Positions 1 to 26,225 of a stretch of 26,225 nucleotides of DNA are shown here, one piece after another. The stretch's first letter is position 1; every line of letters starts with the position of its first letter. The stretch lies in IMG/VR virus record IMGVR_UViG_638341087_000002; one strand, 5' to 3'. The stretch is from a virus. Its lineage: Duplodnaviria > Heunggongvirae > Uroviricota > Caudoviricetes. The translations under genes and the position numbers were made by a program. Under the pieces are notes generated by a model, which ran no database searches, was not told the DNA's origin, and saw nothing but the letters and a program-made list of their open reading frames with translations.

Positions 1-347
1 TGACGCGCCACCTCTTCCACCATCTGTTCAAAACGGCGCAGTGCCTCCGGACGGGCATCATCCTCCGTCATGGCACCGAGAAAATCATTCAGCGTACCGG
101 GTTGAGAATCTTCATACACGGTGATGGTCCCGGCATGTGACGGCGGGAATCCTTCCACCAACAGAATAACGCTGTACTGCCCGTACTCAACGTCCATGCT
201 GTAACGCCCGGCTTCATCCGGATTTTCTGAGGCCAGCGTGTTCACCACCACCGTGGTGCTGTTACGTTTTGCTTTCAGCTGGATTGTGCAGTTCTGTACC
301 GGTTTTCCTGTGCCGTCTTTCAGTACACCTGAAATCTTTACTGCCAT
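1..347 (-). CDS. stf: Side tail fiber protein Stf, N-terminal part (3' end of the gene lies beyond the window start)
   Basis: Reverse-strand translation from the ATG at 345-347 gives MAVKISGVLKDGTGKPVQNCTIQLKAKRNSTTVVVNTLASENPDEAGRYSMDVEYGQYSV..., near-identical to the N-terminus of lambda Stf as I remember it; lies downstream of lom as in lambda. Confidence 0.85.
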   Translation of the reverse strand, partial: MAVKISGVLKDGTGKPVQNCTIQLKAKRNSTTVVVNTLASENPDEAGRYSMDVEYGQYSVILLVEGFPPSHAGTITVYEDSQPGTLNDFLGAMTEDDARPEALRRFEQMVEEVAR

Positions 348-357
348 ATTCACCCCA

Positions 358-384
358 CAAAAAAGCCCGCCTGAAACGGCGGGC
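358..384 (-). terminator. Rho-independent terminator downstream of lom
   Basis: Plus strand has an A-run then GCCCGCC-TGAAAC-GGCGGGC (365-384); on the minus strand this is a GC-rich hairpin followed by a U-run, about 30 nt after the lom stop. Confidence 0.65.
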
Positions 385-411
385 TGTCATAACACTGTGT
401 TACCTGGCTAA

Positions 412-1011
412 TCAGAACTTATAACCGACACCCACGATGAAACCGTCAGTGCGCCAGTCGCCACTGCCGGAGCCTTCATAAGCAATATCAATGGCCACGG
501 ATTCGGTCGGGTTAAACTGCACGCCAGCTCCCCACGCCAGAGACGTGTTGCTGTGGCGACCGTCATCACTTCCGGTCAGCACATCATGCGTTTTCCCCTT
601 GTTGTCAGTTACGCTGAGATAATCCCCGGAGAAAGTCGACACACGGCTGTAAGCCACACCCGCCATCGCATACGCGCTGAACCATTCATTCACGCGCACA
701 GACGGCCCCGCCATTAGGCTGAACCAGCGGTTACGAACGGAATCTTCATGCCAGCGGGTATCGCTGTAACGGGTAAGCTGGCGATTCCTGTCTCCTGCAT
801 AGCTGAATGACGTCACCAGCCCCAGCGTGTCCGTAAACTCATAACGGTATTTCACATTAATCCCGTTCAGATCATCGCTGCCGGGAACGTTCGTCGAGGC
901 ATGAAGATACCCCGCGCTCAGTGTGGACTGATGTTCAGACGCCCATGCAGGCGCACCGGATACGGCCAGACAGATGGCTGCGGACAAAATGGCTGCACAA
1001 ACTTTACGCAT
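412..1011 (-). CDS. lom: Lom outer-membrane protein (Ail/Lom family), signal peptide present
   Basis: 199-aa ORF with N-terminal signal peptide ([24 protein letters not shown]) and C-terminus ...[23 protein letters not shown] matching lambda Lom; sits between J and stf as in lambda. Confidence 0.9.
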
Positions 1012-1032
1012 AATTACCTCTCGCTTTTCTGC

Positions 1033-1059
1033 AATAAAAAAGGCGCCATTTCTGGCGCC
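1033..1059 (-). terminator. Rho-independent terminator downstream of J
   Basis: Plus strand AATAAAAAA then GGCGCC-ATTTCT-GGCGCC; on the minus strand a hairpin followed by a U-tract, 23 nt after the J stop. Confidence 0.6.
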
Positions 1060-1081
1060 CGTTATTAGGGTTATAAATATT

Positions 1082-4000
1082 TCAACGGATACTGATGCCG
1101 GAAGCCGCTTTTTTGGTCACAATCACCGTACAGTCGGTGATATTGCCTGCCCCCTGATTGCCTTTCTGGTAAATCTTAAACTCCAGAGTGACGCTACCTC
1201 GCCCACTCGGCATATCAATAACCGCACTGTAACTACCGGGAATGGCCCCTTTAGTTTCTCTGGATGCGATTAATACGCCGTTTTTGCGAACTTCAAATCC
1301 ATAACCCGTGTACCTTGTACCTCCCGGATTATTACCACTTCCCGGATCGGTATACGCTATACCGTTAAAAATAATGGGCGGAATAATAATCTGACGGTCA
1401 AAGTTATGATCATCGCTGATGGTGACGGTAACCGTCCCGTCTGGCGTTTCCGTGTTACCCCACGTACCGACTTTTTTCGGGAAGGCTTTTGATACAGCTT
1501 TAACGAAATCCCCTCTGACCTGGGTCGCCTCCAGCATGCCCTTAATCGTACAGTTCTCACTTATCGTGACATTGTTGAGCGTCCCGGAGTTCGCATTCAC
1601 GTTACCGCTGATATCAGCGTTTTTCGCCGTCAGCCGCCCGTCCGGTGTCAGGGAAAATGCCGGTGGATTTCCACCACTGGTAATGGTCGGGGCCGTCAGA
1701 CGCTTCAGGAACACGTCGTTCATAAATATCTGATTGCCCTGCGCCACAAACATCGGCGTTTCATTCCCGTTTGCCGGGTCAATAAACGCGATACGGTTAG
1801 CGGCAACCAGAAACTGGCTCAGCTTGCCTTCTTCCGTGTCCTCCATGCTGAGGCCAATACCCGCGACATAATGTTTGCCGTCTTTGGTCTGCTCAATTTT
1901 GACGCCCCACATGGCATTCCACTTATCACTGGCGTCCTGCCACTCTTTCGAAAACTCCTCCAGTCTGCTGGCGTTATCCTCCGTCAGCTCGACTTTTTCC
2001 AGCAGCTCCTTGCCGAGATGGGATTCGGTTATCTGGCCTTTGAAAAAATCCAGGTAACCTTCCGCATCATCGCTCGCCTGACCGACAGCCTCCACGAATG
2101 CCGATTTGCCAACGGTGTTCACGCTGCGGATATAAAAGTAATAATCATGGCCCGGTTTGATATTGATACTGGCGGCTATCCAGTACATCCCCGTGCCAAG
2201 ATAGCGGGCTGTGGTTTCAACCTGCCTGATATCGGTAATCCGCTTTTCCGAAAACCAGAACTCAAACTGTACCGTCGGATCATAAACCGCAAGATGCGGC
2301 GTGGCAGTTATCTGAAAATAGCCCGGCGTCAGCTCAATCTGTGACGGCGCTGCCGGTGCGGCAATCCGGAACGATACCGATGCCGGATCGCCCTGCTGTC
2401 CCCACGCATTTACCGCCCGGACTGTCAGCCTGTAGTTCCCCAGCGCCAGCTGCCTGAAGCGGTATGCGGTTTCCGCCGCCCGGGCCGTGCTGACCAGCCG
2501 CTCACTGCCGTCATCCGCTGCCACGGTCAGGCGAAGCAGGAAACTCACGCCCTTCACCACCTTCGGCGTGTCCCAGCGGGCCAGTACCTGATACTCCCCG
2601 CTGTCTGCGGTGACTTCGGCTGTCAGGTGCTGCACCGCTGGCGGCGTGACACCATTCACCGTGCCGCTCTGGTCGCCGTCAAAGTGCGCCCCGTTATCCA
2701 CGATGGCTTCTTTCTCCGGCACATGCTGCACTGCCGTGATGGCAAAGGTACCGTCCGTGTTTTCCCGGATGGAGACACAGCGGAACAGGCGACGACGCAG
2801 TGACGGCAGGGAGAGTCCCCATACACCGTATGTCTCCACACCATCAGGCAGGGTGCTGACCTGTATCCGGTCCGGCGCGGGGTGTGCAGTGATGGCCACG
2901 CTCACCGGCTTACCGCTGCCGTTAATCAGGTTCACCGTGGCGGCACCTGTCTCCGGCAGTGTCACCTCACGGTCCAGCGTCAGGGTGCGGCTGGCGGCAT
3001 CGATGGACAGGATACGTCCGCCGGTCATGGTCCCGGCATAGTCGTTATCACAGATTTCAATAATGTCACCGGGTGTGTGACGCAGCCCCTGTGACCCGAG
3101 CGTGAAATCCACCGTCTGCGTTTCCAGCAGTCCGGTCTTTATCACCCACAGCCCGGCACGGTGGGCCTGACCGCGACTGGTGCAGCCGAACGCATCCATC
3201 TTCAGCAGGTTGCGCCCGTAGCGCAGTATGGCTTCCGGGTCTTCCACCAGTTCCGTGGAGGTCTGCCAGCCGTTCTGCGGGTCGACGTAACTGACCTCCA
3301 CCGCAGTATGACGGTCCTTCAGGGCGCTGAAACTGTAGCGGAATCCCACACCTTCATTGTCAGCCACCACATCACTGTTTGTGTAGGGCCACACCACATC
3401 TGACGGACGGTCCTGCACAAACGTCAGCGTCTGCCCGTTCCATACCGGCATACAGCGCATCGCCGAGCAGAAATCACTGAGAACGTCCCACGCCTTACGC
3501 TGTTGTGACAGGTACGCATTAAAGGTCATCCGCGGCTCTGTGCCCCCGAAACCATCCGGGACCGTCTGGTCGCAGTACTGCCCGATGGCATACAGCGCCC
3601 ACTTGTCCACATCCGCCGCCCCCAGACGTTTTCCCATTCCGTAGCGCGGGTGGGTCAGCATGTCCCACAGGCACCAGGCAGGGTTGTTGCTGTATGCCGG
3701 TTTCAGGCTGCCGTCCCAGATGCCGCTGTACGTGCGTTTTTCCGGGTCATAGTTTGACGGTACCTGAATGATGCGACCGCGGATATGGTAGTTCACCGTC
3801 ATCTGCTGACCGCCAAACTGCTCCGCATCCACCTGCAGCCCCACAATCGCCGTGTTCGGGTAGCACTGTTTCACATCGATGATTTCGGTGTATGACGACC
3901 AGAGCGTCTTATTCTGCAGCTGGTCCGTGGTGCTGTCCGCCGTCTCCCTGACCATCCGGATGTTAAAGGGGCGGGGAGGCAGATTATCCAGAATCACCGA

Positions 4001-4495
4001 CGCCAGGTACTGTGAGGTGGTCTTGCCGTTAATGGTGACATCCTTTTCCGTCACCCAGTTACCGTTACGCTGCAACTGAATCAGCAGGCGGACGGATGTC
4101 GGGTTTCGGTCACCCTTTGACGTGGTCTGCACCAGTGACTGCACCCCGAAGGTGACCCGCAGGCGGTCAATGTTCGCGGATGTAATGGTGCGCGTCACCG
4201 GCTTTGCCTTCGTCACTTCCACGCCCAGTGCGGTTTCCGCCCCGGAGGACTCAAAGCCTTCAGGTGGTGTCTGCTCCTGCTCCCCGGCGCGCCAGACCGC
4301 TGTCACACCATGTATCACAGGATTACCGTCCGTGTCCGTCAGCGGGGTTTTGTTCACCAGGATACTCTGCAGCCCCTTCACCGGACCTTCCACCGGTCCC
4401 TCACCGATGGCATCAATCACGCTCATCATCTGCGTGGATTTGAGATTGTCCTTCGCCTCACGCGGTGTGTGCCCCTTGCCGCCACCTTTACCCAC
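1082..4495 (-). CDS. J: Tail tip / host specificity protein J (central tail fibre)
   Basis: Track ORF 1082-4546; high similarity along its length to lambda J as remembered ([17 protein letters not shown]..., ...[41 protein letters not shown]...). Start moved to the GTG at 4493-4495 ([15 protein letters not shown], matching lambda [15 protein letters not shown]) with a GGAG-rich SD upstream. Confidence 0.9.
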
Positions 4496-4530
4496 TCTGC
4501 TCCCCTCTCCTGTCTGATGTCTGAATCTGT

Positions 4531-4568
4531 TTATGCCAGAAAACAACAGGCACCCCGGAGGGTGCCTG
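4531..4568 (-). terminator. Candidate intrinsic terminator inside the I-J intergenic insertion
   Basis: Minus-strand hairpin CAGGCACCC-TCCG-GGGTGCCTG (9-bp GC-rich stem) followed by TTGTTTTCT; lies directly upstream of the J ribosome-binding site. Confidence 0.4.
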
Positions 4569-4570
4569 TG

Positions 4571-4690
4571 TCATGACGGAATAAAATTTCTGAAACTCTT
4601 CACATTTCCGGCAATTGCCTGTAGCCGCAATAATGACGCTGCGTTACTTTTTTGATGCCTGAAAAATAACTCCATAACGTTAATCTTCAT
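4571..4690 (-). CDS. Hypothetical 39-aa ORF in the I-J intergenic insertion
   Basis: ATG at 4688-4690 preceded by GGGAGAG SD; translation MKINVMELFFRHQKSNAASLLRLQAIAGNVKSFRNFIPS; flanked upstream by a hairpin and downstream by the candidate terminator. No recognisable similarity. Confidence 0.25.
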   Translation of the reverse strand: MKINVMELFFRHQKSNAASLLRLQAIAGNVKSFRNFIPS

Positions 4691-4735
4691 CGTTCTCTCC
4701 CGCAGCTCCGCTAACTCTGCGGGATTTTTTTATTT

Positions 4736-5416
4736 TCATCCCCGCCCGATAACCACCACTTTCCCGTCTCCGCCCTCATCACGGGTGCTGATGTCCTGGG
4801 ATATCCGTCGTGAACCAACCAGCATTTCACCATAAGGCACCGGCATAGGGTTACCCTGGGCAATCATATTGTCCAGCGACGAAAAATACGTGTTCTGTTT
4901 ACCGTTATCCGTTGCGCGGTAATCCGGTGTTTTTGCCTTCGGTGCCAGCATCTGGGCCACACCGCCCAGTATCATGCTGGCCCCCAGTGAGAACAGCATC
5001 GTGGTGGCAGTCAGCGCTCCGGCACTCAGGGCTGCGCCCCACAACGCCATCGTTGCGCCGGCGGTGAAGAAAGAGCCCACGATGGCTGCTGCCCCCAGCA
5101 CCACCTGAAAAACACCATTTCCCCCGGCCCCTGCCAGCCGCGGTACAATATGAATCACGGCCCTCCCGCTCAGTGGCTCATGAAGACGGGCATACACCGC
5201 CTCCGGCGCGGTATCCTCACCGGCAATACGTATCTGGTACCAGCCTTCGTTCATCTGACCGCGGAATCCCGGCATCTGCAGCGACAGGGCACGGATGGCC
5301 TCCGCTGCCGTGTTCACATACAGGCTGATGCGGCGACCAAATCGTTGTAAATCCCCGTGAAGGCAGATGCGGACCAGTGGCGGTGACGCCAGACAGAATG
5401 CGTTCGTCGTTGCCAT
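4736..5416 (-). CDS. I: Tail assembly protein I
   Basis: 226-aa ORF; strong similarity to lambda I as remembered (ARICLHGDLQRFGRRI..., ...KQNTYFSSLDNMIAQGN...GEM.VGSR...VVVIGR). Confidence 0.9.
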   Translation of the reverse strand: MATTNAFCLASPPLVRICLHGDLQRFGRRISLYVNTAAEAIRALSLQMPGFRGQMNEGWYQIRIAGEDTAPEAVYARLHEPLSGRAVIHIVPRLAGAGGNGVFQVVLGAAAIVGSFFTAGATMALWGAALSAGALTATTMLFSLGASMILGGVAQMLAPKAKTPDYRATDNGKQNTYFSSLDNMIAQGNPMPVPYGEMLVGSRRISQDISTRDEGGDGKVVVIGRG

Positions 5417-6057
5417 TTTTCGGAATACCTCTCCCGTTTACTCAGTTGTTCAGGCAGATGGTGAAGCAGTTCACCGTTGCCGCAGTAAATGGCAGCATGG
5501 TTGGGTACCGATGCGCCAAAGCAGCACAGCAGGATATCGCCTGCCTGTGCCGAGGACAGGGGCACCCGGTAAAAACCAGTGGCCTCCATATTGTCCAGGT
5601 AAAGGTTCTGACCGTTGCGCCACCAGTCATCCTCACGCTCAAAATCCGGCATATCAATTCCCGCCAGATGGTATGCATCCCGGAACAGCGTGTAACAGTC
5701 CGTCACCCCGTGCTCAAAGCGCCGTCCTGTCAGATGTGGCACACAGCGGAATTTATGAATGTCCCCCCGGCAGACCAGCCACCAGGNCAGTGCNCTTTTT
5801 ATCTGCAGCCGCCGGTCNGCCTCGCTCAGCCAGGGCAGNCCACCGGGATGACTGTGGACCAGTGCCACAATCTCCCCCTGCATCTCTGCCCGCAGCCAGT
5901 CTTCCGGTGCAATACGAAAATACGCCTCCGGCTCTGCAGAGATATTCACACANGGNANATACCGCTCCCCCTCCGGCGTTCTCACCACGAAGCCGCACGA
6001 CTCCGCAGGCACACACCGCCGGGTGTGTGCCAGAATCACTGATTCTGTCTGTGTCAT
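5314..6057 (-). CDS. K: Tail assembly protein K (NlpC/P60 plus JAB/MPN-type domains); contains ambiguous bases
   Basis: 247-aa ORF MTQTESVILAHTRRC...IVALVHSHPG...HGVTDCYTLFRDAYHLAGI... matching lambda K; overlaps the 5' end of I as in lambda. Seven N bases (5787-5958) give X residues. Confidence 0.85.
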   Translation of the reverse strand: MTQTESVILAHTRRCVPAESCGFVVRTPEGERYXXCVNISAEPEAYFRIAPEDWLRAEMQGEIVALVHSHPGXLPWLSEXDRRLQIKXALXWWLVCRGDIHKFRCVPHLTGRRFEHGVTDCYTLFRDAYHLAGIDMPDFEREDDWWRNGQNLYLDNMEATGFYRVPLSSAQAGDILLCCFGASVPNHAAIYCGNGELLHHLPEQLSKRERYSEKWQRRTHSVWRHRHWSASAFTGIYNDLVAASACM

Positions 6058-6062
6058 TGGAT

Positions 6063-6761
6063 TTACTGCGAAAGTTTGTTAATGGAAAGGAAACCGCCAA
6101 AATTAGCCACCATGCCGCGCATCTCACACCCGCGCATGCACTTGCTGCATCTGTCCTTACGGATATCGGTGGTGGGGTTGTCGAACTCATCCGCCACCGC
6201 AGGACCGTTATACCCGCATTCATCTCCCCGGTAATCCCACATACAGGTGTTCGCCAGCATGATGCGACCGGGAAACAGCGCCCCGTCCGTCTCCGTCGGT
6301 GTGGCCAGCACAAACGAGGCCGTCATGGCCGTCAGCGATGACATCTGCTCCACCACCCACCGGTCAGTCAGCTCCTGCTCCGGGTCGGCCTCCGGATTGC
6401 CTGCCACAAAGTTCACCGCATCCAGAAAACGCGCATACACCCGGCGGCGGACCACCGTGGCACCCACCAGGCTCTGCAAATCCTCCGCCATCCCGGTGAC
6501 CAGACCAAACAGATTGGACACCGTCAGCGACGGGCGGGCACTGCTGCCCTTTCCGTTCATCTCAAAGCCACTCCCCTCAATCGGGTATGCCTGATATTCA
6601 CGCCCCTGCCAGGTCACCGGCTCCCCTTTTTCATTCAGCTCATTGCAGAAAAAATACCGCTCACCGCCCTGCACCGTCAGGTCGATTTCCCAGAGCACCA
6701 CCCGCGGTGACTGCTCTGACTTAACCGACTCGTTAAGAGTTTCTTCGTGAATATCCTGCAT
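6063..6761 (-). CDS. L: Minor tail protein L
   Basis: 232-aa ORF MQDIHEETLNE...VVLWEIDLT..GGERYFFCNE.NEKGEPVTWQGR.YQ.YPI.GSGFE.NGKG... matching lambda L; ends ...NFGGFLSINKLSQ. Confidence 0.9.
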   Translation of the reverse strand: MQDIHEETLNESVKSEQSPRVVLWEIDLTVQGGERYFFCNELNEKGEPVTWQGREYQAYPIEGSGFEMNGKGSSARPSLTVSNLFGLVTGMAEDLQSLVGATVVRRRVYARFLDAVNFVAGNPEADPEQELTDRWVVEQMSSLTAMTASFVLATPTETDGALFPGRIMLANTCMWDYRGDECGYNGPAVADEFDNPTTDIRKDRCSKCMRGCEMRGMVANFGGFLSINKLSQ

Positions 6762-7090
6762 CAGTTCACCACCTGCTTAAACTCCGCGCTGAACTCAACG
6801 CGCAACATCCCGACCCGCGCAGACCACCCGGCACAGGTCACCTTTATCTGCCGGTATGCATAGGGTGGCTTCCACAAAAATGCCTTCCAGCCCCCGTGCT
6901 CTGCCAGAAACGCTTCCAGATGCCGGGCCTCCTCCCGGGTCACGGAAAGCGTCACCCGGTATGTTTTCAGGTCAGCATTCAGCCCTGCCGCCATACGCTG
7001 TGAGTACCCGTCACCAAAACGCACTTCACGCACCGATGGCTGCGAGTTCACCTCCATATCCGGCTTCACTTTCCAGCGAAATGTTTTCAT
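6761..7090 (-). CDS. M: Minor tail protein M
   Basis: 109-aa ORF between H and L, overlapping both by 1-4 nt (translational coupling), the position and size of lambda M. Confidence 0.85.
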   Translation of the reverse strand: MKTFRWKVKPDMEVNSQPSVREVRFGDGYSQRMAAGLNADLKTYRVTLSVTREEARHLEAFLAEHGGWKAFLWKPPYAYRQIKVTCAGWSARVGMLRVEFSAEFKQVVN

Positions 7091-9741: not shown

Positions 9742-9775
9742 CTCCTGAAATGTCCTCTGATACCATCAATAACTG

Positions 9776-10533: not shown

Positions 10534-10546
10534 GTATTACCTCCGT

Positions 10547-11299: not shown

Positions 11300-11306
11300 A
11301 TCGTCC

Positions 11307-11705
11307 TCACATCTCGTAGGTAATTTTCCACAGGAGATCTGCCGATCCCCACATCATAAACTCATCATCCCGGCGGTAGTCATACCCCTGAAGATTCATC
11401 TTCAGCAGTAATGCACTGAGCCCGGGAACTGCCTCCAGCGCAGGAAGAATTTTTTCTTCCATCCACATATCCAGTGCCGAGTCCGGTTCTTTTGCCCTGA
11501 GAAAAACCTCAATATGCAGTGTCGCCTCCCAGGTTCCCTCATCAACGAACTCGTCAGCAGCAGACGCATCTGTCAGGTAAACAGCAACAGCAGGCAGTTC
11601 CTGTTCATCAATAAAAACCGGGCGACCGTCAAACCAGCTCACCCTCTCAGAAATATTTTCTTTCAGGGCAGACAGAACTGCCGCCCGTATTTCACGGTGT
11701 TTCAT
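11307..11705 (-). CDS. U: Tail terminator protein U
   Basis: 132-aa ORF between Z and V; size, position and sequence character of lambda U. Confidence 0.8.
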
Positions 11706-16503: not shown

Positions 16504-16739
16504 TAAAACCTCGCCAGTTTAAATCCCGGTTTTCCCCGCCTGCGGCTCACCATCGCGGCAAGCCTGCGTTCCCACTCCTGACGTCCGGCGCGGATCTGAG
16601 AAAGGCTTTCCAGCGTCAGTTGCTGCCCGTTGAAGGTGACAGACTTTCCCTCCAGTACGGCCATTTCCGCTTCACGGTACCGCTGTATCATTTCTCTGGC
16701 TTCTTCTGTGCTCACAACCAGCCTCCTGATGTTATCCAT
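16503..16739 (-). CDS. Head-tail joining protein, gpW-like
   Basis: 78-aa ORF between terminase large subunit and portal, the position of lambda W; C-terminus RRRGKPGFKLARF resembles lambda gpW RRRGPAGFYV. Confidence 0.7.
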   Translation of the reverse strand: MDNIRRLVVSTEEAREMIQRYREAEMAVLEGKSVTFNGQQLTLESLSQIRAGRQEWERRLAAMVSRRRGKPGFKLARF

Positions 16740-18835: not shown

Positions 18836-19308
18836 ATATCGGCCTCATCACAACAGTCAATGACTGCCTTTTCCAGTGTGTCGCGGATCTCATCAACCAC
18901 AATCTGTACTTCATTCAGTTGTGATGCGGTCCACCCCCTGTCCCTTTCCAGCCGGTCAGGCCAGGTTTCCAGTACCTGAACTATCGCTTTCACCACGACA
19001 GAAAAGGACCGCCTGACATCACTGACTGGCACAAGCTGACCAGTTTCCTGCTCAAATTTCAGTCGGTCACGTTCTGACTGGTACCATGCTTTACGCGCAT
19101 GAGGATCCATTTCCTTGTTATCTACAGGCAGAGGAGCTTTCATCAGCTCGGCAAGGATATCTGTCAGTCGGTACAGTTTGAGATTGCTCTCATGACCACC
19201 GGCTGGGCTTATGTTTTTTACCCGAGCCGCAACAGTCTGTCGATGAGCACCGGATAATGCGGCCAGTTGGGAAATATTCAGATGCAGATTTTTTAATTCA
19301 CGATCCAT
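18832..19308 (-). CDS. Terminase small subunit (DNA-binding, N-terminal HTH)
   Basis: 158-aa ORF immediately upstream of and overlapping terL; N-terminal HTH-like segment (LNISQLAALSGAHRQTVAARV); adjacent to an AT-rich region and a GC-rich cosN-like element. Confidence 0.8.
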   Translation of the reverse strand: MDRELKNLHLNISQLAALSGAHRQTVAARVKNISPAGGHESNLKLYRLTDILAELMKAPLPVDNKEMDPHARKAWYQSERDRLKFEQETGQLVPVSDVRRSFSVVVKAIVQVLETWPDRLERDRGWTASQLNEVQIVVDEIRDTLEKAVIDCCDEADM

Positions 19309-19475
19309 AACTTCCCCTGAAAATTATGTAAATACACGCCAGTGATGAACAAAAAACAATCAACTTCGACACTAAAAAATTTTATTATGATATATATCAA
19401 TGATTTACACTGGTGGTGATGGTGCCATAAAAATCAAAAAATGCGCCTTTTTCCGCGCCGCCCGCCCCGTGTTCA
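19309..19475. other. Candidate cos region (cosB AT-rich segment plus cosN-like GC-rich core)
   Basis: AT-rich 130 bp with A-tracts next to the terS start, then GC-rich CGCGCCGCCCGCCCC (about 19451-19468), which shares the core CGCCGCCC with the lambda cohesive-end sequence GGGCGGCGACCT (complement). Positional analogy to lambda cos-Nu1. Confidence 0.4.
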
Positions 19476-19726
19476 GGCCCACCACACCAGGAGGACCCGA
19501 AAAATGATAATGGTTATCATTTGTAATGTAGTCCGGTTTCTTCCACCATCGCACCGGACCAGCGACTATGAGGGGACAACGCCGCGCTCCGTTAACGCGG
19601 TAAACCCCGGTGTGTATCGTTTTTGATTATCCCCGCACACTCGCGCAGAGGAGTCTCCCTGTCGGGCTGCGGTCTCTGTTAATACGGGAATACGGCGACA
19701 ATACCGCGCATGGATAATAAGGTCGC

Positions 19727-19951
19727 TCAACACACTGGCTGTAATGCAGCGGATACCATGCGGCATTTAGCGGCATTCATCGTACACTCCACGGTTAGCT
19801 CTTCATTCGTGGCATTCACCCGAAAGGTCCGGGAGTGTAATTGCGTACATTTACCACTGAACGAACCTTCAACAAGAACACGACCACGCTGCAAAATACG
19901 GAACGGAATTGTTCCCTGAAAAGGCTTTACGGTTACCAGTAATTTCTTCAT
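19727..19951 (-). CDS. Hypothetical 74-aa protein between Rz and cos
   Basis: ATG at 19949-19951 preceded by GGAG SD; MKKLLVTVKPFQGTIPFRILQRGRVLVEGSFSGKCTQLHSRTFRVNATNEELTVECTMNAAKCRMVSAALQPVC; not recognisable as bor or any family I know. Confidence 0.45.
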   Translation of the reverse strand: MKKLLVTVKPFQGTIPFRILQRGRVLVEGSFSGKCTQLHSRTFRVNATNEELTVECTMNAAKCRMVSAALQPVC

Positions 19952-19974
19952 GCATTCTCCGGATAACAAAAATA

Positions 19975-20442
19975 CTAGTTAATACACTGAGTGCGGATAT
20001 ATTCCTGCGCCCCTTCCAGCTGCTTCTGCATCATCATCAACCGTTCTCTGAGGATGAAATAATCCCGTTCAGCGGTGTCTGCCAGTCGGGGGCCGGTTGC
20101 ATTATCCACGCCGGAGGTGCCGGTGGCTTCACGCACGGTACCGTGGCAGGTGGCGTTGATCCGCAGGCGCTTACGACCAGCGGCAACATCAGCACGCAGA
20201 GTTTCATTTTCAGCTCTCGCATCGGCTAATTCCTTCGAGTATTTTGCATCGAGCGCAGCAACATCACGCTGACGCACCTGCATGTCAGTAATGGTGGCAT
20301 TCGCCTGTTCCAGCTCTCTGGCTTTTTTATCGCGCTGCGCTTTGTAGGTGATGGCGTTATCGCGGTAATGATTAACAGCCCATAACAGACAGACGATGAT
20401 GCAGATAACCAGAGCGTAAATAATCGCGGTTACTCTTCTCAC
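19975..20442 (-). CDS. Rz: Spanin, inner-membrane subunit Rz (i-spanin)
   Basis: Strong similarity to lambda Rz ([38 protein letters not shown]...[15 protein letters not shown]). Start set at the GTG at 20440-20442, which overlaps the endolysin stop codon (GTGA); the track's TTG at 20460 is an alternative. Confidence 0.85.
20037..20222 (-). CDS. Rz1: Spanin, outer-membrane lipoprotein subunit Rz1 (o-spanin), embedded in Rz in the +1 frame
   Basis: 61-aa [64 protein letters not shown] with lipobox LVVSAC and a proline-rich mature part; close match to lambda Rz1. Confidence 0.85.
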
Positions 20443-20972
20443 TGATCTATCCCCCAACAAGCTAATGCGCTTTCCTGGTCACGACGAATAACCTGTCCGT
20501 AGCAGTTATTTGAACGTGTGCGGCAATCACGCCCACCGTCCTTAATCCACCAGCGAATCGCCTCACACGCCCCCCTGCGATCGCCTGCATTAATTCGTTT
20601 ATAAAACGTCGACGGGAAACACTTACCTGGGCCAATGTTGTAAGGACAGAATGACGCAATACCCGCTTTCTGGGGTTCAGTCAGTGGCACTTTGATGTTT
20701 TTCTCCACCCATGCCAGCGCCTTATCACGCTCAATGGCGTTAACCTGGTCGCATTTCCCCTTCGACAGCTTCATGCCAGGAATAACAGGCTTACCATCCA
20801 CCCGGGTGGCTCCACGGCAGATGGTCCAGATACCCGCACCATCACGGTATGCCGTGGTGTGGTTGCCTTCCTTTTCATCCAGAAACTGGTCGAGGATTTC
20901 AGGCGCAGAAGCACCTGCGGCAATCAGCGCCAGAACGGCAGCCGATAAACCATAGCGGAGTTTCCTGCTCAT
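20439..20972 (-). CDS. R: SAR endolysin (T4-lysozyme family, glycoside hydrolase family 24) with N-terminal signal-anchor-release domain
   Basis: 177 aa; weakly hydrophobic Gly/Ala-rich N-terminus ([17 protein letters not shown]) followed by an E-x8-D-x5-T catalytic triad ([16 protein letters not shown]), as in the phage 21 and 933W endolysins. Confidence 0.85.
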
Positions 20973-20976
20973 CAGC

Positions 20977-21192
20977 TTACTCTCCCCGTGCCGCCTTACG
21001 CCTGTCCTCTCTGATTTTGAAATACAGGTTCGTCAGGTACGTCAGCAGACCAAACAGCAGACTCCCCAGCACGCCTATTGCCGCCCACTGAGACGGGGAA
21101 ACCCTGTCCAGCAACTGCAGGAACCAGTAGCCCGTTCCCACCGCTGACGTGGTGTATGACACACCTGTTGTGATTTTTTCCATCTGGTACAT
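20977..21192 (-). CDS. S: Class II holin (pinholin, S21-like) with dual start motif
   Basis: 71 aa [71 protein letters not shown]; essentially the S21/933W holin as I remember it; Met1 and Met4 suggest antiholin/holin dual starts; GGGAG SD upstream. Confidence 0.9.
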
Positions 21193-21268
21193 ACCCCGTC
21201 TCCCGCAATCCGGAAGCTCACAACATGAAAAAGGCCAGCAGCTGTTTACTGATGGCCCTGACTCCCCG

Positions 21269-21541
21269 TTACAGCATCATGACCGATTCGGGTTGAGGTT
21301 CAGTCGCATCGGCGACCGGTGATTCAGGCTGAACTTCACCGCTCTCTGCGGTGGTATCTCCCGCTTCAGTCGGTGGCTCTGCCTGTACACCAAGCAGCTC
21401 ATCCAGAATGGCATCAACCTCTGCATCAAGACGCGCTTCCAGGTTATGGCGAAGTTTTTGTTTCAGTGCACTCAGGACTTCTTCAGAGCGCAGGACTTCC
21501 TTCACTGCCTCAGCAGTGACCAGGGATGTAATTTCTGACAT
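21269..21541 (-). CDS. Hypothetical acidic 90-aa protein
   Basis: Internal ATG at 21539-21541 of the 148-aa track ORF chosen because the upstream part overlaps another plausible ORF; [51 protein letters not shown]... helical N-terminus, Glu/Pro-rich acidic tail. Weak SD. Confidence 0.45.
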
Positions 21542-21581
21542 GGGATTTTCTCGTCGAAAGGTGTGATTAAGAAAGTTGCCG

Positions 21582-21761
21582 CTAAATGAGCGGCTCTTCG
21601 GGTTTGCTTCCGGCTGACTGACTGGCGCTGATTTTCTCAGCGGCCCTTTTGTCAATCTGTCTGCGCCAGACGTCACGCATGGCCCTGTACCCACCCGAAA
21701 GGAGATACAGCACACAGACCACCGTACAGAAGTACAGCATTAACTGGTTCAGAAATGTCAT
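21582..21761 (-). CDS. Hypothetical 59-aa single-TM membrane protein
   Basis: ATG at 21759-21761 preceded by GGAAAG; MTFLNQLMLYFCTVVCVLYLLSGGYRAMRDVWRRQIDKRAAEKISASQSAGSKPEEPLI (hydrophobic N-terminal segment then basic region). Below the 60-aa cut-off of the supplied track. Confidence 0.4.
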   Translation of the reverse strand: MTFLNQLMLYFCTVVCVLYLLSGGYRAMRDVWRRQIDKRAAEKISASQSAGSKPEEPLI

Positions 21762-21896
21762 AATTTCTTTCCGTTATTGTTGACAATAAGAACTGTTTTC
21801 ATTAAAAAACCAGAGTACGAAAGTATCGTTCCTTTATTTTTTCTCCATAGGTATCACCACCGCCAGCGTCCATTCCTGTCGATGGCGGTTTTTTTA

Positions 21897-23843
21897 TCAT
21901 GCCGCAGTGTCTGTGCTGTTCACTTCCACCGCAATGCTGTCTATCAGTACCGGGTAAGTCGCACCTCTGGTAATGTCTGTCACATGCAGTTTATCCGCCG
22001 CAAAGGCACTGACCGGTGACTGCGTCAGCGTGAACGGTGTGCCATCCTGACCATCAATAACCGGCGTCACCTGCAGGCTGTTATTCCCGGCAAAGCGGAA
22101 AGCCAGCGTATGCCATTCGTTATCAAATGCGCCAAAGGTTCCCAGTTTCAGGTTGTTTGTCGCCACTTTCGCATTGTGGTACATCACATTCAGGTCTTTT
22201 GCATCTGTCTGGATGTAGAACGCTGCCAGCAGGTTATTCCCCCCGTCTCCGGTCAGGGCAACGCCCTGTGGCAGTGAAGATACCGGCCAGTAAAACGCCA
22301 TAACATACTGGTTCGCAGCCAGCNCTCCCGAAACCTTAAAGCGGCAGCGAATCTGCCCCCCTTTCTGTAACAGAGCCGCACCGTTGCCCGCGGCGTACTC
22401 CAGCACCCAGCTGCTTTTACCGGCTTCCTTGGTCAGCTTCACTGCCTTACCTCCGGTTCCCTCCGCATCGCTGACCACTTCTGCCCTGCCGCCACTGGCT
22501 GACCATCCCTGTACTTTCAGGCTTCCCTCTGACTCGCTGGCAAGGTAAGAGAGCAGTGTTGTGACGCCTGTGGCTTCTGCACCGGAAGGCGATGACGGGC
22601 GCACCTCTGATACTGTCGATGATGCCCCCGCGTTTAGCGCCACTCTTCCCGCATGGCGCAAAATCGCCGTTGCCAGACGGTCGGAAATAATCCCGCGGCG
22701 AGCCCATGAACTGAAATGGCTCGCCCTGTCCTGTGACGTCCAGGTGGCTGAGCTGTCACGCCATTTCGAACCGTAATATCCGATACCCGGAATGTCCGGG
22801 TCTTCTTCCGGTTTGTTCGTCGGCACATTCACCCCGTTCTCATCCGTCATGAACGGTACGAAATGGATATTCTTTTCCGTTTTGTTTTTGTAGCTGCCGT
22901 ACACCGTCTGGTACGTGGATTCGTTCTTCTGCTTCCAGAAATACGTCGTATCTCCACATATCCAGGGAACACCGCCAGCAGAGCCNCCGACGCACTGACC
23001 TGCCATATCCGCCAGGTCTGCACGGAATTTATCAACCAGCGCACCAAACTGTGCTGCGTGATTTACCGGCGTACCGCCAAAATCAAATTCCCCCTGCATC
23101 CACNCCACGGCAAACAGCACATTTTTCGGGTTCTTCTTCAGTGCTGCTTTTGTTCGACCGATAAGGTCCTTATACAGCGGCTTGTCCACACCCCAGCGGG
23201 TTGAATTCTCCGAGGCACCACTCGCGTCACTGTATGTGCCATCAGCTCCGGTGGTGAACGCTGAACCACCACGACAGCACGGAACCAGCAGAATGCCCGC
23301 ATTCGCCGGTATAAACGGCAGCAGTTTTTTGGCGATATGCAGCCCCTGCCCCACGGTTCCGTACTGCCCCTTTGACAGGTCCGCTTTCGGATGGTTAAGG
23401 CGGCTCATGTCCTGCACATCATGCAGACAATGGTCCGCCGGAATGATGTCGTTATATTTACAGGCGACACCGCCCGGTGTCACCGTACTGCGACGCGCCA
23501 GCTGCTTAATGCGCAGGTCCGGACGGTCATATGTCTCCGGCAGCGGAAGGCCTTCACCATATGCCATGCTGTTTGACTGCCCCGCCAGAACCACAACAAA
23601 GTAATACTCCGGGTCTCTGGTGGCGCTGATTACTGTGCCTTCTCCATCCGACGGCTTCACCACAACAGGTGTGCTCACATCACCTTCTGCGACAATCGCC
23701 TGAATAAGTGCTGCGCCATCATCCGTATACGAAGAAAACGGCCCGCCGTATGGTTGCCATCCTTCACGAATTTTTTGAGCAAGTGCATCAGCAAGGTCTG
23801 ACGGCGACACCGCCCTGACCACATCATAATGTTTAATCGACAT
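21897..23843 (-). CDS. nanS-p: Prophage sialate O-acetylesterase NanS-p-like (SGNH/SASA hydrolase core with N- and C-terminal accessory domains); contains ambiguous bases
   Basis: 648-aa ORF; GQSN-type motif (VLAGQSNSMAYGEG) characteristic of sialate O-acetylesterases; size and location (between the tRNA/toxin locus and the holin) match the yjhS/nanS homologue of Stx phages. Three N bases (22325, 22986, 23104). Confidence 0.8.
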   Translation of the reverse strand: MSIKHYDVVRAVSPSDLADALAQKIREGWQPYGGPFSSYTDDGAALIQAIVAEGDVSTPVVVKPSDGEGTVISATRDPEYYFVVVLAGQSNSMAYGEGLPLPETYDRPDLRIKQLARRSTVTPGGVACKYNDIIPADHCLHDVQDMSRLNHPKADLSKGQYGTVGQGLHIAKKLLPFIPANAGILLVPCCRGGSAFTTGADGTYSDASGASENSTRWGVDKPLYKDLIGRTKAALKKNPKNVLFAVXWMQGEFDFGGTPVNHAAQFGALVDKFRADLADMAGQCVXGSAGGVPWICGDTTYFWKQKNESTYQTVYGSYKNKTEKNIHFVPFMTDENGVNVPTNKPEEDPDIPGIGYYGSKWRDSSATWTSQDRASHFSSWARRGIISDRLATAILRHAGRVALNAGASSTVSEVRPSSPSGAEATGVTTLLSYLASESEGSLKVQGWSASGGRAEVVSDAEGTGGKAVKLTKEAGKSSWVLEYAAGNGAALLQKGGQIRCRFKVSGXLAANQYVMAFYWPVSSLPQGVALTGDGGNNLLAAFYIQTDAKDLNVMYHNAKVATNNLKLGTFGAFDNEWHTLAFRFAGNNSLQVTPVIDGQDGTPFTLTQSPVSAFAADKLHVTDITRGATYPVLIDSIAVEVNSTDTAA

Positions 23844-23919
23844 CGAATTTCTCCCGTGTAGAGGAACAGAGTTAAAAAGCCGGAAGCGGAATCAAATCAC
23901 AGGATGACCATCTGCCAGT

Positions 23920-23948
23920 GGCTGGTCGTAAAAAAAAGGCCGCGCCAT
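23920..23948 (-). terminator. Candidate intrinsic terminator upstream of nanS-p
   Basis: Minus strand GGCUGCGC-AUG-GCGCGGCC (one G-U wobble) followed by a U8 tract; about 80 nt upstream of the nanS-p start. Confidence 0.5.
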
Positions 23949-24157
23949 GCGCAGCCGAAAATAAAGGGATAACGATGATAGTTTGAGAAAAACAGAAATA
24001 ACACTTTTGTGGCAAAGCATGGTGCCGGGTGCCTCCCGGTGAATTCAGTATCAGCACCTGAATCCGCGATTACCCCATATTCCTTCTTGCTGATTGCCCC
24101 ACCGCACAGGGGGATTCACCATGCAGAAGTGTTTTTAATAAACAGCAAACAAAAAAA

Positions 24158-24325
24158 TCAAGCATTATGCAGGCTGTTTCTTTTTATCACCGGCCACAGC
24201 AATACCATAATGCCGCAGACCAGCACCCCATCCGCCAGCACCGACATGATTCTGCTGGTGAAATCCACCATCACCACCAGAAACAGCAGGAGTGCAGCCA
24301 CAGCCAGGCGCAGTTTTACCGTCAC
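24158..24325 (-). CDS. Hypothetical 55-aa two-TM small membrane protein, start codon overlapping the TerB-like stop
   Basis: GTG at 24323-24325 overlaps the TerB-like stop (GTGA) with GGAG 8 nt upstream; VTVKLRLAVAALLLFLVVMVDFTSRIMSVLADGVLVCGIMVLLWPVIKRNSLHNA has two hydrophobic segments. Not in the supplied track in this frame. Confidence 0.3.
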   Translation of the reverse strand: MTVKLRLAVAALLLFLVVMVDFTSRIMSVLADGVLVCGIMVLLWPVIKRNSLHNA

Positions 24326-24753
24326 AGGTGATTCTCCAGACGAAGACCCAGAACACCGGCAATCTCTTCCAGCACCTTGCGCTCTTCCGGCTCAATTTCG
24401 CCGTCTGCCTCCGCAATGGCCACCGCCACATCCAGCACATCTTCCGCTTCACGCGTATCGTGTTTCACATCCTCAATCTCGCGTAACGCGGCACGACGAC
24501 CAATTTTAAAATTGGTATCCAGCTGACCGATAATAGTTGCGCTAATCGCATTAATTTCCGAGGTAAACGCAGACAACGCAGGCTGATTACGTAAGACCTG
24601 TTCGATCTTCGCTTTCTCGGATGCCTCGCATTCACCATCTGCATAGGCCACCAGGTATGCAGCGTTAATCACCGCCTGTGCCAGATCGCGTTTCTCAAAC
24701 TTTTTAATTTCCGCTGCCGCTCTGCGGGTTTTCTTTTTGAAGATTCCAAACAT
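24322..24753 (-). CDS. TerB-like domain protein (tellurite-resistance TerB family fold), 143 aa
   Basis: ATG at 24751-24753 with AGGAA SD (track ORF starts at an upstream GTG). Two repeats of the TerB-type motif: AYADGECEASEKAKIEQVL and AEADGEIEPEERKVLEEIAGVLGL. Confidence 0.55.
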   Translation of the reverse strand: MFGIFKKKTRRAAAEIKKFEKRDLAQAVINAAYLVAYADGECEASEKAKIEQVLRNQPALSAFTSEINAISATIIGQLDTNFKIGRRAALREIEDVKHDTREAEDVLDVAVAIAEADGEIEPEERKVLEEIAGVLGLRLENHL

Positions 24754-24884
24754 CGTGACGTTCCTTTGGGTGGGTGAGCCAACGCCCGGGAGCGATCTGC
24801 CCACAGAGAAAGTCACACTGACCACTCCGTAAGCTCACCCCCGAAAGGCTCTGTGGTTGATATGCGCCGGGCGTGGCGCAGATA

Positions 24885-24909
24885 CAAAAAAGGCCCGCCG
24901 AAGCGAGCC
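24885..24909 (-). terminator. Intrinsic terminator downstream of the tRNA cluster
   Basis: Minus strand GGCUCGC-UUCG-GCGGGCC (UUCG tetraloop, one G-U pair) followed by UUUUUUG, about 14 nt after the last tRNA. Confidence 0.6.
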
Positions 24910-24922
24910 TGGAAAATAAGTG

Positions 24923-24999
24923 TGGCGCGTTGTAGTGGAGTCGAACCACTGACCGATTGCTTAGAAGGCAATTGCTCTGTCCGACTGAGCTAACAACGC
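24923..24999 (-). tRNA. argN: tRNA-Arg (anticodon UCU, reads AGA/AGG)
   Basis: Hand-folded cloverleaf: acceptor GCGTTGT/ACAACGC, D-arm GCTC..GAGC, anticodon stem ATTGC/GCAAT with loop CTTCTAA, T-arm AGTGG-TTCGACT-CCACT, discriminator G, encoded CCA. Confidence 0.8.
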
Positions 25000-25012
25000 A
25001 TGATGCTGATAA

Positions 25013-25089
25013 TGGACCGCCATCGGGGACTTGAACCCCGCGCAGCCAGCTTCGAAGGCTGGCGCTCTGTCCCGATGAGCTAATGGCGG
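25013..25089 (-). tRNA. argO: tRNA-Arg (anticodon UCG, reads CGA/CGG); atypical C1:G72 and U73
   Basis: Hand-folded cloverleaf: acceptor CCGCCAT/ATGGCGG, D-arm GCTC..GAGC, anticodon stem CCAGC/GCTGG with loop CTTCGAA, T-arm CGGGG-TTCAAGT-CCCCG, encoded CCA. Gene symbol assigned by position only. Confidence 0.65.
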
Positions 25090-25098
25090 TATGTGATA

Positions 25099-25174
25099 TG
25101 GTGGCCCTTGCTGGATTTGAACCAGCGACCTGGCGATTATGAGTCGCTCGCTCTCACCACTGAGCTAAAGGGCC
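25099..25174 (-). tRNA. ileZ: tRNA-Ile2 (anticodon CAU, lysidine-type, reads AUA)
   Basis: 76 nt GGCCCTTTAGCTCAGTGGTGAGAGCGAGCGACTCATAATCGCCAGGTCGCTGGTTCAAATCCAGCAAGGGCCACCA; near-identical to E. coli ileX/ileY as remembered; anticodon loop CTCATAA. Confidence 0.85.
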
Positions 25175-25202
25175 GAGCCAAAAAATAATAATCAGATGAA
25201 AA

Positions 25203-25916
25203 TCAATAATCAAGCCCTTGCCTGGATACATATCTGTCTGGCGGGAAGCCATAATAGCGGTGAAATACAGAAATAAAGTAGGACCTGCTTGAATAACCGC
25301 ATTTTTCTGCTATAGCCTGTCCATATCCATGCCGGGAACATAACATATTTACAGCAACACGCATCCGCTCTTCCAGCAACAAGCGACTGAACATGCCCCC
25401 TTCATTTTTCAGTTTTGTCTTTAACAAACTCTCACTCATATGCAACTGTAGAGCAATCGCACCAAGCGTCCAGCTTGCTGATATATCTGTCTGAATTATC
25501 GCCCTGACTTTGGCACTTATGCTGGATAAACATCCACTTAAAAACAATGACATCCGTTCATCTGTTTCAAACAGAGACAGGCAGGCCATCATAAGAAACA
25601 TATCCGTGGCCTCTCCGGAAAATCCCTGGCTGGTAATTAAAGCCGCAGCCAACGCAGGATTGTTGGGTTCCAGCAACAGGTAAAGCGGAATGTCAGTCAG
25701 ACGAGTCCTCGTCAGCTTATGCTGACTTTCCAGATATTGACTTACGACGGATTCGCTTATATCGACAATTTTAACTTTGCCATAATGCATAAGGAAAAGC
25801 TCCCTGATGCATTTGGTGGCCAGAACGACTGAGCCTGGCTTAAGTGACAACGTATCCTTTTCAAGAAAAATATTAATTGGGGAGCAAACCATGATAACTG
25901 AACAGACAACAGCCAT
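25203..25916 (-). CDS. AraC/XylS-family transcriptional regulator (prophage cargo gene)
   Basis: 237-aa ORF with C-terminal AraC-type double HTH (WTLGAIALQLHMSESLLKTKLKNEGGMFSRLL.EERMRVAVNMLCSRHGYGQAIAEKCGYSSRSYFISVFHRYYGFPPDRY). Start uncertain (Met1 at 25916 or Met9 at 25892; neither has a strong SD). Confidence 0.8.
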   Translation of the reverse strand: MAVVCSVIMVCSPINIFLEKDTLSLKPGSVVLATKCIRELFLMHYGKVKIVDISESVVSQYLESQHKLTRTRLTDIPLYLLLEPNNPALAAALITSQGFSGEATDMFLMMACLSLFETDERMSLFLSGCLSSISAKVRAIIQTDISASWTLGAIALQLHMSESLLKTKLKNEGGMFSRLLLEERMRVAVNMLCSRHGYGQAIAEKCGYSSRSYFISVFHRYYGFPPDRYVSRQGLDY

Positions 25917-25945
25917 TATAATTTTACTTTCATTAGCAATTGGTT

Positions 25946-25990
25946 AGCTCAATTATAGCCCCAAAAGGTAAATTATCATCAACACATAAG
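25946..25990 (-). promoter_or_regulatory. Candidate sigma70 promoter upstream of the AraC-like gene (possible late-promoter equivalent)
   Basis: Perfect -10 TATAAT on the minus strand (plus 25952-25957) 36 nt upstream of the AraC-like ATG; weak -35 candidates (TTGATG/TGATGA) 17-19 nt upstream. Confidence 0.35.
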
Positions 25991-26035
25991 CAAAGGACTG
26001 ACAGGTGTCGCCCCCCCCACCAGCCGCCCATTCAC

Positions 26036-26065
26036 CACAAATAAAAAGCCTTCAGGACTGAAGGC
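26036..26065 (-). terminator. Hairpin plus U-tract overlapping the stop codon of the Q-like ORF
   Basis: Minus strand GCCUUCAG-UC-CUGAAGGC (stop codon inside) followed by UUUUUAUUU. Confidence 0.45.
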
Positions 26066-26225
26066 GTCTGTAACAACCGCACTGATAGTCTGCCAGACCC
26101 GCCATAACAAGCTGGGTCAGTATTAACTGGCAGCGTTCGCGTGAAAGGTAAGTATTCTGCGCAACCTCCCCGACTGTCGCCGGTTCGGTAACGCTTAATT
26201 CATTAAACACCACTCTGGCGGTTTC
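26052..26225 (-). CDS. Probable late-gene antiterminator Q, C-terminal 57 codons (5' part outside the window)
   Basis: Open frame to the window edge ending ...SVTEPATVGEVAQNTYLSRERCQLILTQLVMAGLADYQCGCYRRLQS; assignment rests mainly on position (upstream of the tRNA cluster and lysis genes) and Cys-rich C-terminus; I do not recognise the sequence confidently. Confidence 0.35.
   Translation of the reverse strand, partial: ETARVVFNELSVTEPATVGEVAQNTYLSRERCQLILTQLVMAGLADYQCGCYRRLQS

Follow-up and report, generated by a model that had tools for sequence, protein, structure and literature searches.

What kind of element joins the lysis region of a Shiga toxin (Stx) phage to a lambda-like tail, and what does it carry at the position of the toxin genes? 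The question is raised by the IMG/VR record IMGVR_UViG_638341087_000002, a stretch of 26,225 nucleotides (nt) from a virus of the class Caudoviricetes, the whole of which is called the window here. A preliminary description, made from the sequence alone, had taken it for a mosaic lambdoid prophage in which an Stx-phage-type late and lysis region is combined with a lambda-like tail and a non-lambda head, and this is supported by Pfam, PHROGs and tblastn. We conclude, with a probability of about 0.93, that the window is the late (lysis, packaging, head and tail) region of an stx-negative, long-tailed, mosaic lambdoid prophage, of a type that is abundant and multi-copy in enterohaemorrhagic (EHEC) and enteropathogenic Escherichia coli. 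Members of the type include the Sakai Sp prophages, VT1-Sakai and the yecE-type Stx2 phages. This is a known element: every gene belongs to a described family, the gene order occurs in finished genomes and the cargo is all documented.

Organization of the window

Genes were identified with Pfam, PHROGs, Rfam and ARAGORN, and the proteins were compared by tblastn with phage lambda (NC_001416) and phage 933W (NC_000924). All long open reading frames (ORFs) are on the minus strand and the GC skew is negative throughout, which fits a single long leftward transcription unit. From right to left, that is in the direction of transcription, the order is the 3' part of a small ORF (orf65), an AraC-family regulator, three transfer RNAs (tRNAs), TerB, DUF3927, an STnc100-family small RNA (sRNA), nanS-p, DUF1378, DUF826, the holin S, the lysozyme R and Rz/Rz1. 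It continues with a 666-nt spacer, the terminase subunits TerS and TerL, a W-like adaptor, the portal, a ClpP/capsid fusion, a DUF2190 protein, a Gifsy-2 family protein, the tail genes Z to J, lom and the start of stf. The identifications given in the preliminary description for lom, the tail and head genes, Rz/Rz1, the lysozyme, the holin and nanS-p were reproduced in homology searches.

The same description had noted the 933W order in the lysis half. The tRNA cluster and nanS-p, S, R and Rz/Rz1 do follow it, with 94.7% DNA identity for the tRNAs and 82-99% amino acid (aa) identity for the genes, and DUF1378 and DUF826 also have the same place in 933W. On the other hand, 933W carries stx2AB, its R and Rz are separated by an ant gene, a bor gene follows Rz, its Q lies directly upstream of the tRNAs without an AraC or methylase cassette, and its head module and short tail are unrelated to those of the window. 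Although the genes do match 933W and lambda, the comparators chosen in the preliminary description, better ones are the long-tailed Stx2 and Stx1 phages, which share a whole 23.8-kb block with the window at about 96-97%.

Relatives and exchanged cassettes

Positions 1-23856 are colinear, at about 96-97% DNA identity, with the long-tailed Stx phages and prophages ASU11 (ON416862), Stx2_112808 (LC567830), VT1-Sakai and the yecE prophage of the O55:H7 strain USDA5905. In 447 complete E. coli records, 80% or more of the first 25 kb was present at a single place; the best of these reached about 97% over 1-23856, and several were Stx2 prophages. ASU11, which was obtained by mitomycin C induction, is colinear with the window over 4578-23856 at 97.5%, and every late ORF of the window is full length when compared with it. 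Since the 23.8-kb block is shared so widely, the join of the Stx-type lysis region to this head and tail is old and widespread, and it is not particular to the window.

The remaining 2.4 kb (23844-26225) has counterparts at 99.7% identity in prophages of O103:H2 and O145:H28 strains, and 490 genomes cover at least 80% of it. Here the similarity to ASU11 is interrupted twice: it stops at 23856 and resumes at 24875, and it stops again at 25178 and resumes at 26016. The first interruption (1.0 kb, 23857-24874) holds TerB, DUF3927 and STnc100 exactly where ASU11 has 1.8 kb with stx2A and stx2B. The second holds the AraC cassette (0.8 kb) where ASU11 has a DNA methylase of 1.2 kb. The conserved sequences on either side of these cassettes are nanS-p at its 5' end, the tRNA cluster together with the terminator that follows it, and the small ORF beside Q. 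The two swaps are ordinary lambdoid mosaicism by homologous recombination. The long-tailed Stx2 phages (ASU11, Stx2_112808 and the USDA5905 prophage) thus resemble the window from stf and lom through nanS-p, in the tRNA cluster and in orf65, but they carry stx2AB and the methylase, and in J, lom and stf their identity to the window falls to about 90-92% at the DNA level.

A second useful relative is the prophage of the finished genome OkiPb01713 (AP042682), which lies near ydeP/malX and is stx-negative. It has the same order from Q, orf65 and an identical AraC to the lambda-like tail, and it covers 99% of window positions 17500-26225 at 96.8%. It differs in having about 1.3 kb extra between holin and lysozyme, including a YdfR-family fragment, and in a tail region cut by insertion sequence (IS) elements after I, and its sequence is not identical to the window. 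Nevertheless, with the complete gene order present in a finished genome, the architecture is already in the public record.

The cassette at the stx position

The position occupied by stx2AB in ASU11 is not empty. The features around it are as follows.

24923-25174, minus strand: tRNA cluster (ARAGORN, Rfam), consisting of a tRNA with anticodon CAT of the ileZ type (25099-25174), tRNA-Arg(TCG) (25013-25089) and tRNA-Arg(TCT) (24923-24999)
24891-24910, minus strand: terminator-like hairpin just downstream of the tRNA cluster (terminator scan)
24322-24753, minus strand: TerB/TciA-like protein, 143 aa (Pfam TerB, 2.9e-16; phrog_632)
24158-24325, minus strand: DUF3927/TciB-like small membrane protein (Pfam DUF3927, 2.2e-16; phrog_1470)
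23938-24153, minus strand: STnc100-family sRNA (23981-24153; Rfam RF02076) followed by an intrinsic terminator (23956-23938; terminator scan)

The TerB/TciA gene, the DUF3927/TciB gene and STnc100 stand together at this position, and all three had been missed in the preliminary description. The STnc100 match scores 100.8 bits against an Rfam gathering threshold of 47 (model positions 1-206, E = 3.6e-21). With its strong terminator it lies between DUF3927 and nanS-p, which is the slot of the stx2B-proximal sRNAs in Stx2 phages. The exchanged cassettes stand at the site for moron insertion downstream of PR' that Tree et al. have described (PMC4104026), and the anti-sRNAs AgvB and AsxR are known at this site (PMC4104026). 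A permissive Rfam search of the window found no AgvB or AsxR; only STnc100 and the tRNAs were matched.

The preliminary description had also stated that no ORF for Stx subunit A or B is present. This agrees with our tblastn search of the window with Stx2A and Stx2B, which gave chance matches only (best E values of 0.08 and 2.6, at unrelated places), so not even a remnant of stx was seen.

The tRNA cluster has 94.7% DNA identity to ileZ-argN-argO of 933W, and its first tRNA is identical. ARAGORN called this CAT gene tRNA-Met; the call was rejected, as the gene is identical to 933W ileZ and is annotated as tRNA-Ile in RefSeq. The hairpin at 24891-24910 is placed like the annotated terminator upstream of stx2 in 933W, to which window positions 24875-25178 align.

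The AraC-family regulator and the missing Q

Two features lie to the right of the tRNAs.

26052-26225, minus strand: 3' part of orf65, a conserved hypothetical ORF of 65 aa that is cut by the right edge (phrog_331, 5.3e-30; weak TrmB-like Pfam match)
25203-25916, minus strand: AraC-family regulator of the PsrA/PsrB type, 237 aa, in a region of lower GC content (about 45%) (Pfam HTH_AraC, 2.4e-13; HTH_18)

The preliminary description had placed the antiterminator Q within the window, which did not hold. Six Q or antiterminator proteins (those of lambda, 933W and four prophage types) gave no tblastn match in the window. The ORF at 25203-25916 beside the tRNAs was ruled out as Q by its HTH_AraC match (2.4e-13) and by the lack of any Q-type match. 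In related prophages orf65 lies between Q and the cargo cassette, with Q about 200 nt past orf65, that is, about 200 nt beyond the right edge of the window. A terminator-like hairpin is found at 26065-26048.

The AraC-family protein is identical to WP_000301785.1, and the same sequence is recorded on more than 1000 contigs. It has 90.7% aa identity to ECs_1087 of the Sakai prophage Sp4, which is likewise immediately upstream of ileZ1-argN1-argO1 and has been named psrA (PMC13502914), and 98.7% to a second O157:H7 copy (strain TW14359). The protein thus has at least about 90% identity to the PsrA/PsrB regulators of EHEC O157:H7 and their position between Q and the ileZ tRNA cluster, directly upstream of ileZ-argN-argO; its function in the window is predicted. 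O157:H7 genomes hold two copies of this regulator, and the published identity between PsrA and PsrB is 90% (PMC10877973, PMC8565820). From these two facts we infer that the regulator of the window is probably a PsrB-type allele. Both PsrA and PsrB are reported to raise the expression of GadE/YhiF and thereby repress type III secretion, and PsrB additionally to activate acid resistance genes (PMC10877973, PMC8565820). In the closest Stx2 phages the slot of the AraC gene is taken by the DNA methylase. The AraC gene has its own promoter-like site at 25979-25952.

nanS-p and the lysis genes

Downstream of the stx position, the following genes were found.

21897-23843, minus strand: nanS-p, prophage sialate O-acetylesterase, with 3 single N bases (Pfam DUF1737, SASA and DUF6645)
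21582-21761, minus strand: DUF1378 protein (Pfam DUF1378, 1.3e-39)
21269-21541, minus strand: DUF826 protein (Pfam DUF826, 1.8e-28)
20977-21192, minus strand: S, holin of the phage 21 type (class II), 71 aa (Pfam Phage_holin_2_1, "Bacteriophage P21 holin S", 9e-33)
20439-20972, minus strand: R, GH24 lysozyme, 177 aa, candidate signal-anchor-release (SAR) endolysin (Pfam Phage_lysozyme, 3e-24; 96% aa identity to 933W R)
19975-20460, minus strand: Rz, i-spanin (Pfam Phage_lysis, 1.4e-50; 82% aa identity to 933W)
20037-20222, minus strand: Rz1, o-spanin lipoprotein, embedded in Rz in the +1 frame (Pfam Rz1, 6.4e-22; lipobox-like VVSAC; 97% aa identity to 933W)

The nanS-p product has 91.5% aa identity to p42 of 933W, and all three NanS-p domains are above the Pfam cut-offs in a gene that stands downstream of the stx position. 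By its domains and identity it is predicted to be a NanS-p sialate O-acetylesterase.

The holin covers positions 1-63 of the 64 of the P21 holin profile and has 98.6% aa identity to S of 933W. Residues 12-174 of R align with the phage 21 lysozyme 3HDE (E = 6.7e-17), and the alignment includes the N-terminal segment of R, opposite the SAR segment of 3HDE. At its N-terminus R has a weakly hydrophobic, Gly/Ala-rich segment of 16 residues after basic residues, and the E-x8-D-x5-T motif (Glu-8aa-Asp-5aa-Thr) is present, so that R is a candidate for SAR behaviour. Rz and Rz1 have 78% and 72% identity to their lambda counterparts, whereas the holin and endolysin belong to the phage 21 type and are not lambda S and R.

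The head module and its boundary with the lysis genes

Between the lysis genes and the tail, the features are these.

19727-19951, minus strand: orf74, hypothetical, in the spacer (matches only positions 100-172 of the 291 of phrog_2571; hypothetical in the O55:H7 annotation)
18832-19308, minus strand: TerS, small terminase subunit, DUF1441 (Pfam DUF1441, 3.8e-49; phrog_141)
16712-18835, minus strand: TerL, large terminase subunit (Pfam GpA_ATPase and GpA_nuclease; 24% aa identity to lambda A)
16503-16739, minus strand: W-like head-tail adaptor (phrog_118, 4.5e-33)
15001-16503, minus strand: portal protein (Pfam Phage_portal_2, lambda family, 1.6e-80; 21% aa identity to lambda B)
13032-15203, minus strand: ClpP-like prohead protease fused to the major capsid protein (Pfam CLP_protease, 2.7e-36, and Phage_capsid_4, 9.9e-56; phrog_133)
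12618-12944, minus strand: DUF2190 head decoration (cement) protein (Pfam Phage_cement_2, 6.6e-19; phrog_122)
12344-12625, minus strand: head-tail joining protein of the Gifsy-2 family, in place of lambda FII (Pfam Gifsy-2, 6.7e-14; phrog_153)

The statement in the preliminary description that the head is not lambda-like was correct in part. Five head genes (TerS, the adaptor, the protease/capsid fusion, the decoration protein and the head-tail protein) had no tblastn match in lambda. From the lambda set of Nu1, A, W, B, C/Nu3 (S49 protease/scaffold), D, E, FI and FII, only TerL and the portal have matches, and the head of the window differs from that of lambda in having no homologues of Nu1, C, Nu3, D, E, FI or FII. 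However, TerL and the portal belong to the lambda GpA and lambda-portal families of Pfam, and the head is therefore a distant cousin of that of lambda and not unrelated to it. For the ClpP/capsid fusion, the RefSeq relatives begin at the equivalent of 15011; a sequence search of the PDB for a solved capsid relative found cellular ClpP proteins only.

The spacer between Rz and TerS (19309-19975, 666 nt) is of lower GC content and without the bor and ant genes of 933W. It showed no DNA similarity to lambda, and the cos site, which is expected there, was not located in it. Because its match is limited to the middle of the 291-position PHROG profile, orf74 is probably what remains of a gene. The same region from AraC through the tRNAs, TerB and nanS-p to the lysis genes is followed in O111:H8 2009C-3675 by a true lambda-type head, whose protease is of the S49 type, and in OkiPb01713 by the head with the ClpP/capsid fusion. 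With two head types behind one lysis region, the spacer between Rz and the terminase is a recombination boundary between modules.

The tail module

The tail genes and their left-hand neighbours are listed below.

11718-12347, minus strand: Z, tail completion protein (Pfam Minor_tail_Z, 2.4e-54; 52% aa identity to lambda Z)
11307-11705, minus strand: U, tail terminator (Pfam Phage_tail_U, 2.6e-52; 55% aa identity to lambda U)
10547-11299, minus strand: V, major tail tube protein with a C-terminal Big_2 domain (Pfam Phage_TTP_12, 1e-68, and Big_2; 80% aa identity to lambda V)
10111-10533, minus strand: G, tail assembly chaperone (Pfam Phage_TAC_2, 6.5e-35; 43% aa identity to lambda G)
9776-10135, minus strand: T reading frame (Pfam Phage_tail_T; 72% aa identity to lambda T)
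7087-9741, minus strand: H, tape measure protein (Pfam TMP_2 and Tape_meas_lam_C; 50% aa identity to lambda H)
6761-7090, minus strand: M, minor tail protein (Pfam Phage_min_tail; 80% aa identity to lambda M)
6063-6761, minus strand: L, minor tail protein (Pfam Phage_tail_L, 1.4e-92; 77% aa identity to lambda L)
5314-6057, minus strand: K, tail tip C40 peptidase, with 7 single N bases (87% aa identity to lambda K)
4736-5416, minus strand: I, tail assembly protein (Pfam Lambda_tail_I; 67% aa identity to lambda I)
4496-4735, minus strand: intergenic insert of 240 nt between I and J, absent from lambda, with a GC-rich hairpin and then a U tract, inside the late operon
1082-4495, minus strand: J, tail tip/host specificity protein, 1137 aa, with a GTG start aligned with that of lambda (six GpJ Pfam domains; 77% aa identity to lambda J)
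412-1011, minus strand: lom, Ail/Lom outer-membrane protein, cargo between J and stf as in lambda (Pfam Ail_Lom, 2.2e-121; 44% aa identity to lambda Lom)
1-347, minus strand: stf, side tail fibre gene, of which the left edge leaves the first 115 codons (at 92% aa identity to lambda Stf (orf-401) in its N-terminal part; 93% to ASU11 Stf)

The eleven tail genes from Z to J are syntenic with lambda, fall into Pfam families named after lambda and have 43-87% aa identity. When lom and stf are included, the order Z-U-V-G-T-H-M-L-K-I-J-lom-stf is the same as in lambda at 43-92% aa identity and 74-89% DNA identity over most of the length. The preliminary description had followed the tail through stf; Z to J and lom were found as it stated, but stf is present only as its first 115 codons.

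A heptamer A AAA AAG at 10135-10129 is in the zero frame, six codons before the stop of G, and from there on the -1 frame has no stop until that of T. A programmed -1 frameshift, at the same position as in lambda, is thus predicted to join G to T in a fusion of about 253 aa. The heptamer is of the dnaX type, while lambda has G GGA AAG at the equivalent position.

The C-terminal part of J, residues 1001-1137 (window 1082-1492), has only 35-37% identity to lambda J, compared with 65-96% for the remainder. Since this is the receptor-binding part, its divergence points to a different outer-membrane receptor, and the receptor of J is probably not LamB. The insert between I and J folds better than its shuffles (z = -2.9) and occurs without annotation in about 800 complete E. 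coli genomes. It could be an uncharacterised sRNA or an internal attenuator.

Alternative explanations

Some points weigh against the identification of the window as the late region of such a prophage. Among complete genomes, none matches the window over its full length at more than 98%. The early region, Q, PR', the integrase and the attachment sites are all outside the window, from which neither the inducibility nor the completeness of the prophage can be judged. The SAR behaviour of R is predicted from its sequence, and its N-terminal segment ends in Ala-Ser-Ala, which could instead be a signal-peptidase site; expression of the cargo in the lysogen is likewise an expectation. Finally, ten isolated N bases, at 5787, 5794, 5818, 5839, 5953, 5956 and 5958 in K (within 172 nt) and at 22324, 22986 and 23104 in nanS-p, point to a draft consensus as the source. 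Several of these are sites that differ among paralogous prophage copies, which suggests a draft consensus from a poly-lysogenic strain with similar prophages. The window might then be in part an assembly chimera, in which a short-read draft merged several paralogous lambdoid prophages into one or joined them wrongly, especially as EHEC genomes hold up to 22 places similar to it and, within the same genomes, the prophage that best matches the left 23.8 kb is not the one that best matches the right 2.4 kb. We consider this very improbable, because the main junctions and the whole order are contiguous in finished or phage genomes: lysis, head and tail in ASU11, nanS-p and TerB in O111:H8 2009C-3675, TerB, tRNAs, AraC and orf65 in 2000-3039, and the complete order in OkiPb01713. 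Moreover, every ORF is intact, and no codon that contains an N can be read as a stop.

It might also be asked whether this late region is that of a functional phage. Most EHEC lambdoid prophages are defective somewhere, and the finished-genome relatives show IS elements, frameshifts and internal stops in this region, so the window could be the late half of a cryptic prophage that makes no particles and is kept for its cargo only. Every late gene of the window, however, is full length and colinear with the inducible ASU11, and no IS element or frameshift was seen; on balance we find this reading somewhat doubtful. We are a little more sceptical of a direct history from an Stx2-converting phage, in which the TerB-DUF3927-STnc100 cassette of a co-resident prophage would have taken the place of stx2AB by homologous recombination in the tRNA cluster and the nanS-p 5' end. 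Over 23.8 kb the closest relatives are indeed Stx2 phages and prophages (96-97%), the replaced interval is exactly the stx2AB-bearing interval of ASU11 with both flanks kept, and genomes such as 2013C-4991 hold both cassette types in separate prophages. But a single sequence does not reveal in which direction the exchange went, and Stx2 phages that gained stx on this backbone would leave the same pattern. In addition, the stx-less cassette is far commoner, with the right-end block in 490 genomes, no stx fragment is left, and a second independent swap (AraC for methylase) is also needed. To the same degree, we think it unlikely that the window is best described as an stx-negative sibling of the long-tailed Stx2 phages in which the toxin and methylase cassettes were each exchanged between conserved flanks. 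The late region of an stx-negative, long-tailed, mosaic lambdoid prophage thus remains our preferred identification.

Proposed workings and significance

The following scheme for such a prophage is drawn from the biology of lambda, phage 21 and 933W. Upon induction, Q, encoded just past the right edge, would modify RNA polymerase at PR', and the polymerase would read leftward through the hairpins at 26065-26048, 24910-24891 and 23956-23938 into the late genes. The transcript would contain in turn the tRNAs, the TerB-DUF3927 cassette, nanS-p, the lysis cassette, the terminase, the portal, the capsid fusion, the decoration protein and the tail. The tail would be built with the G/T frameshift chaperone, the tape measure protein, the tip complex M-L-K-I-J and the side fibre. 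Lysis would proceed by the phage-21-type pinholin and the exported GH24 endolysin, and then by the Rz/Rz1 spanin acting on the outer membrane. The PsrB-type AraC regulator, the three rare-codon tRNAs, TerB/DUF3927, STnc100, nanS-p and lom are cargo, that is, morons at module boundaries, and these genes are expected to be active in the lysogen.

The finding has little importance beyond correct annotation. The cargo comprises known fitness and regulatory genes, namely the PsrB-type regulator (acid resistance, type III secretion), NanS-p, the rare-codon tRNAs, STnc100 and Lom, and annotation of the ORF beside the tRNAs as Q should be avoided. A prophage can resemble an Stx2 phage over 24 kb and yet be without the toxin, which is relevant to the sequence-based typing of Stx-producing E. 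coli. If the direction of the exchange was the loss of stx, the window would be a clean example of an EHEC prophage shedding its toxin, and also a backbone to which one double crossover with an Stx phage in the same host could bring stx back.

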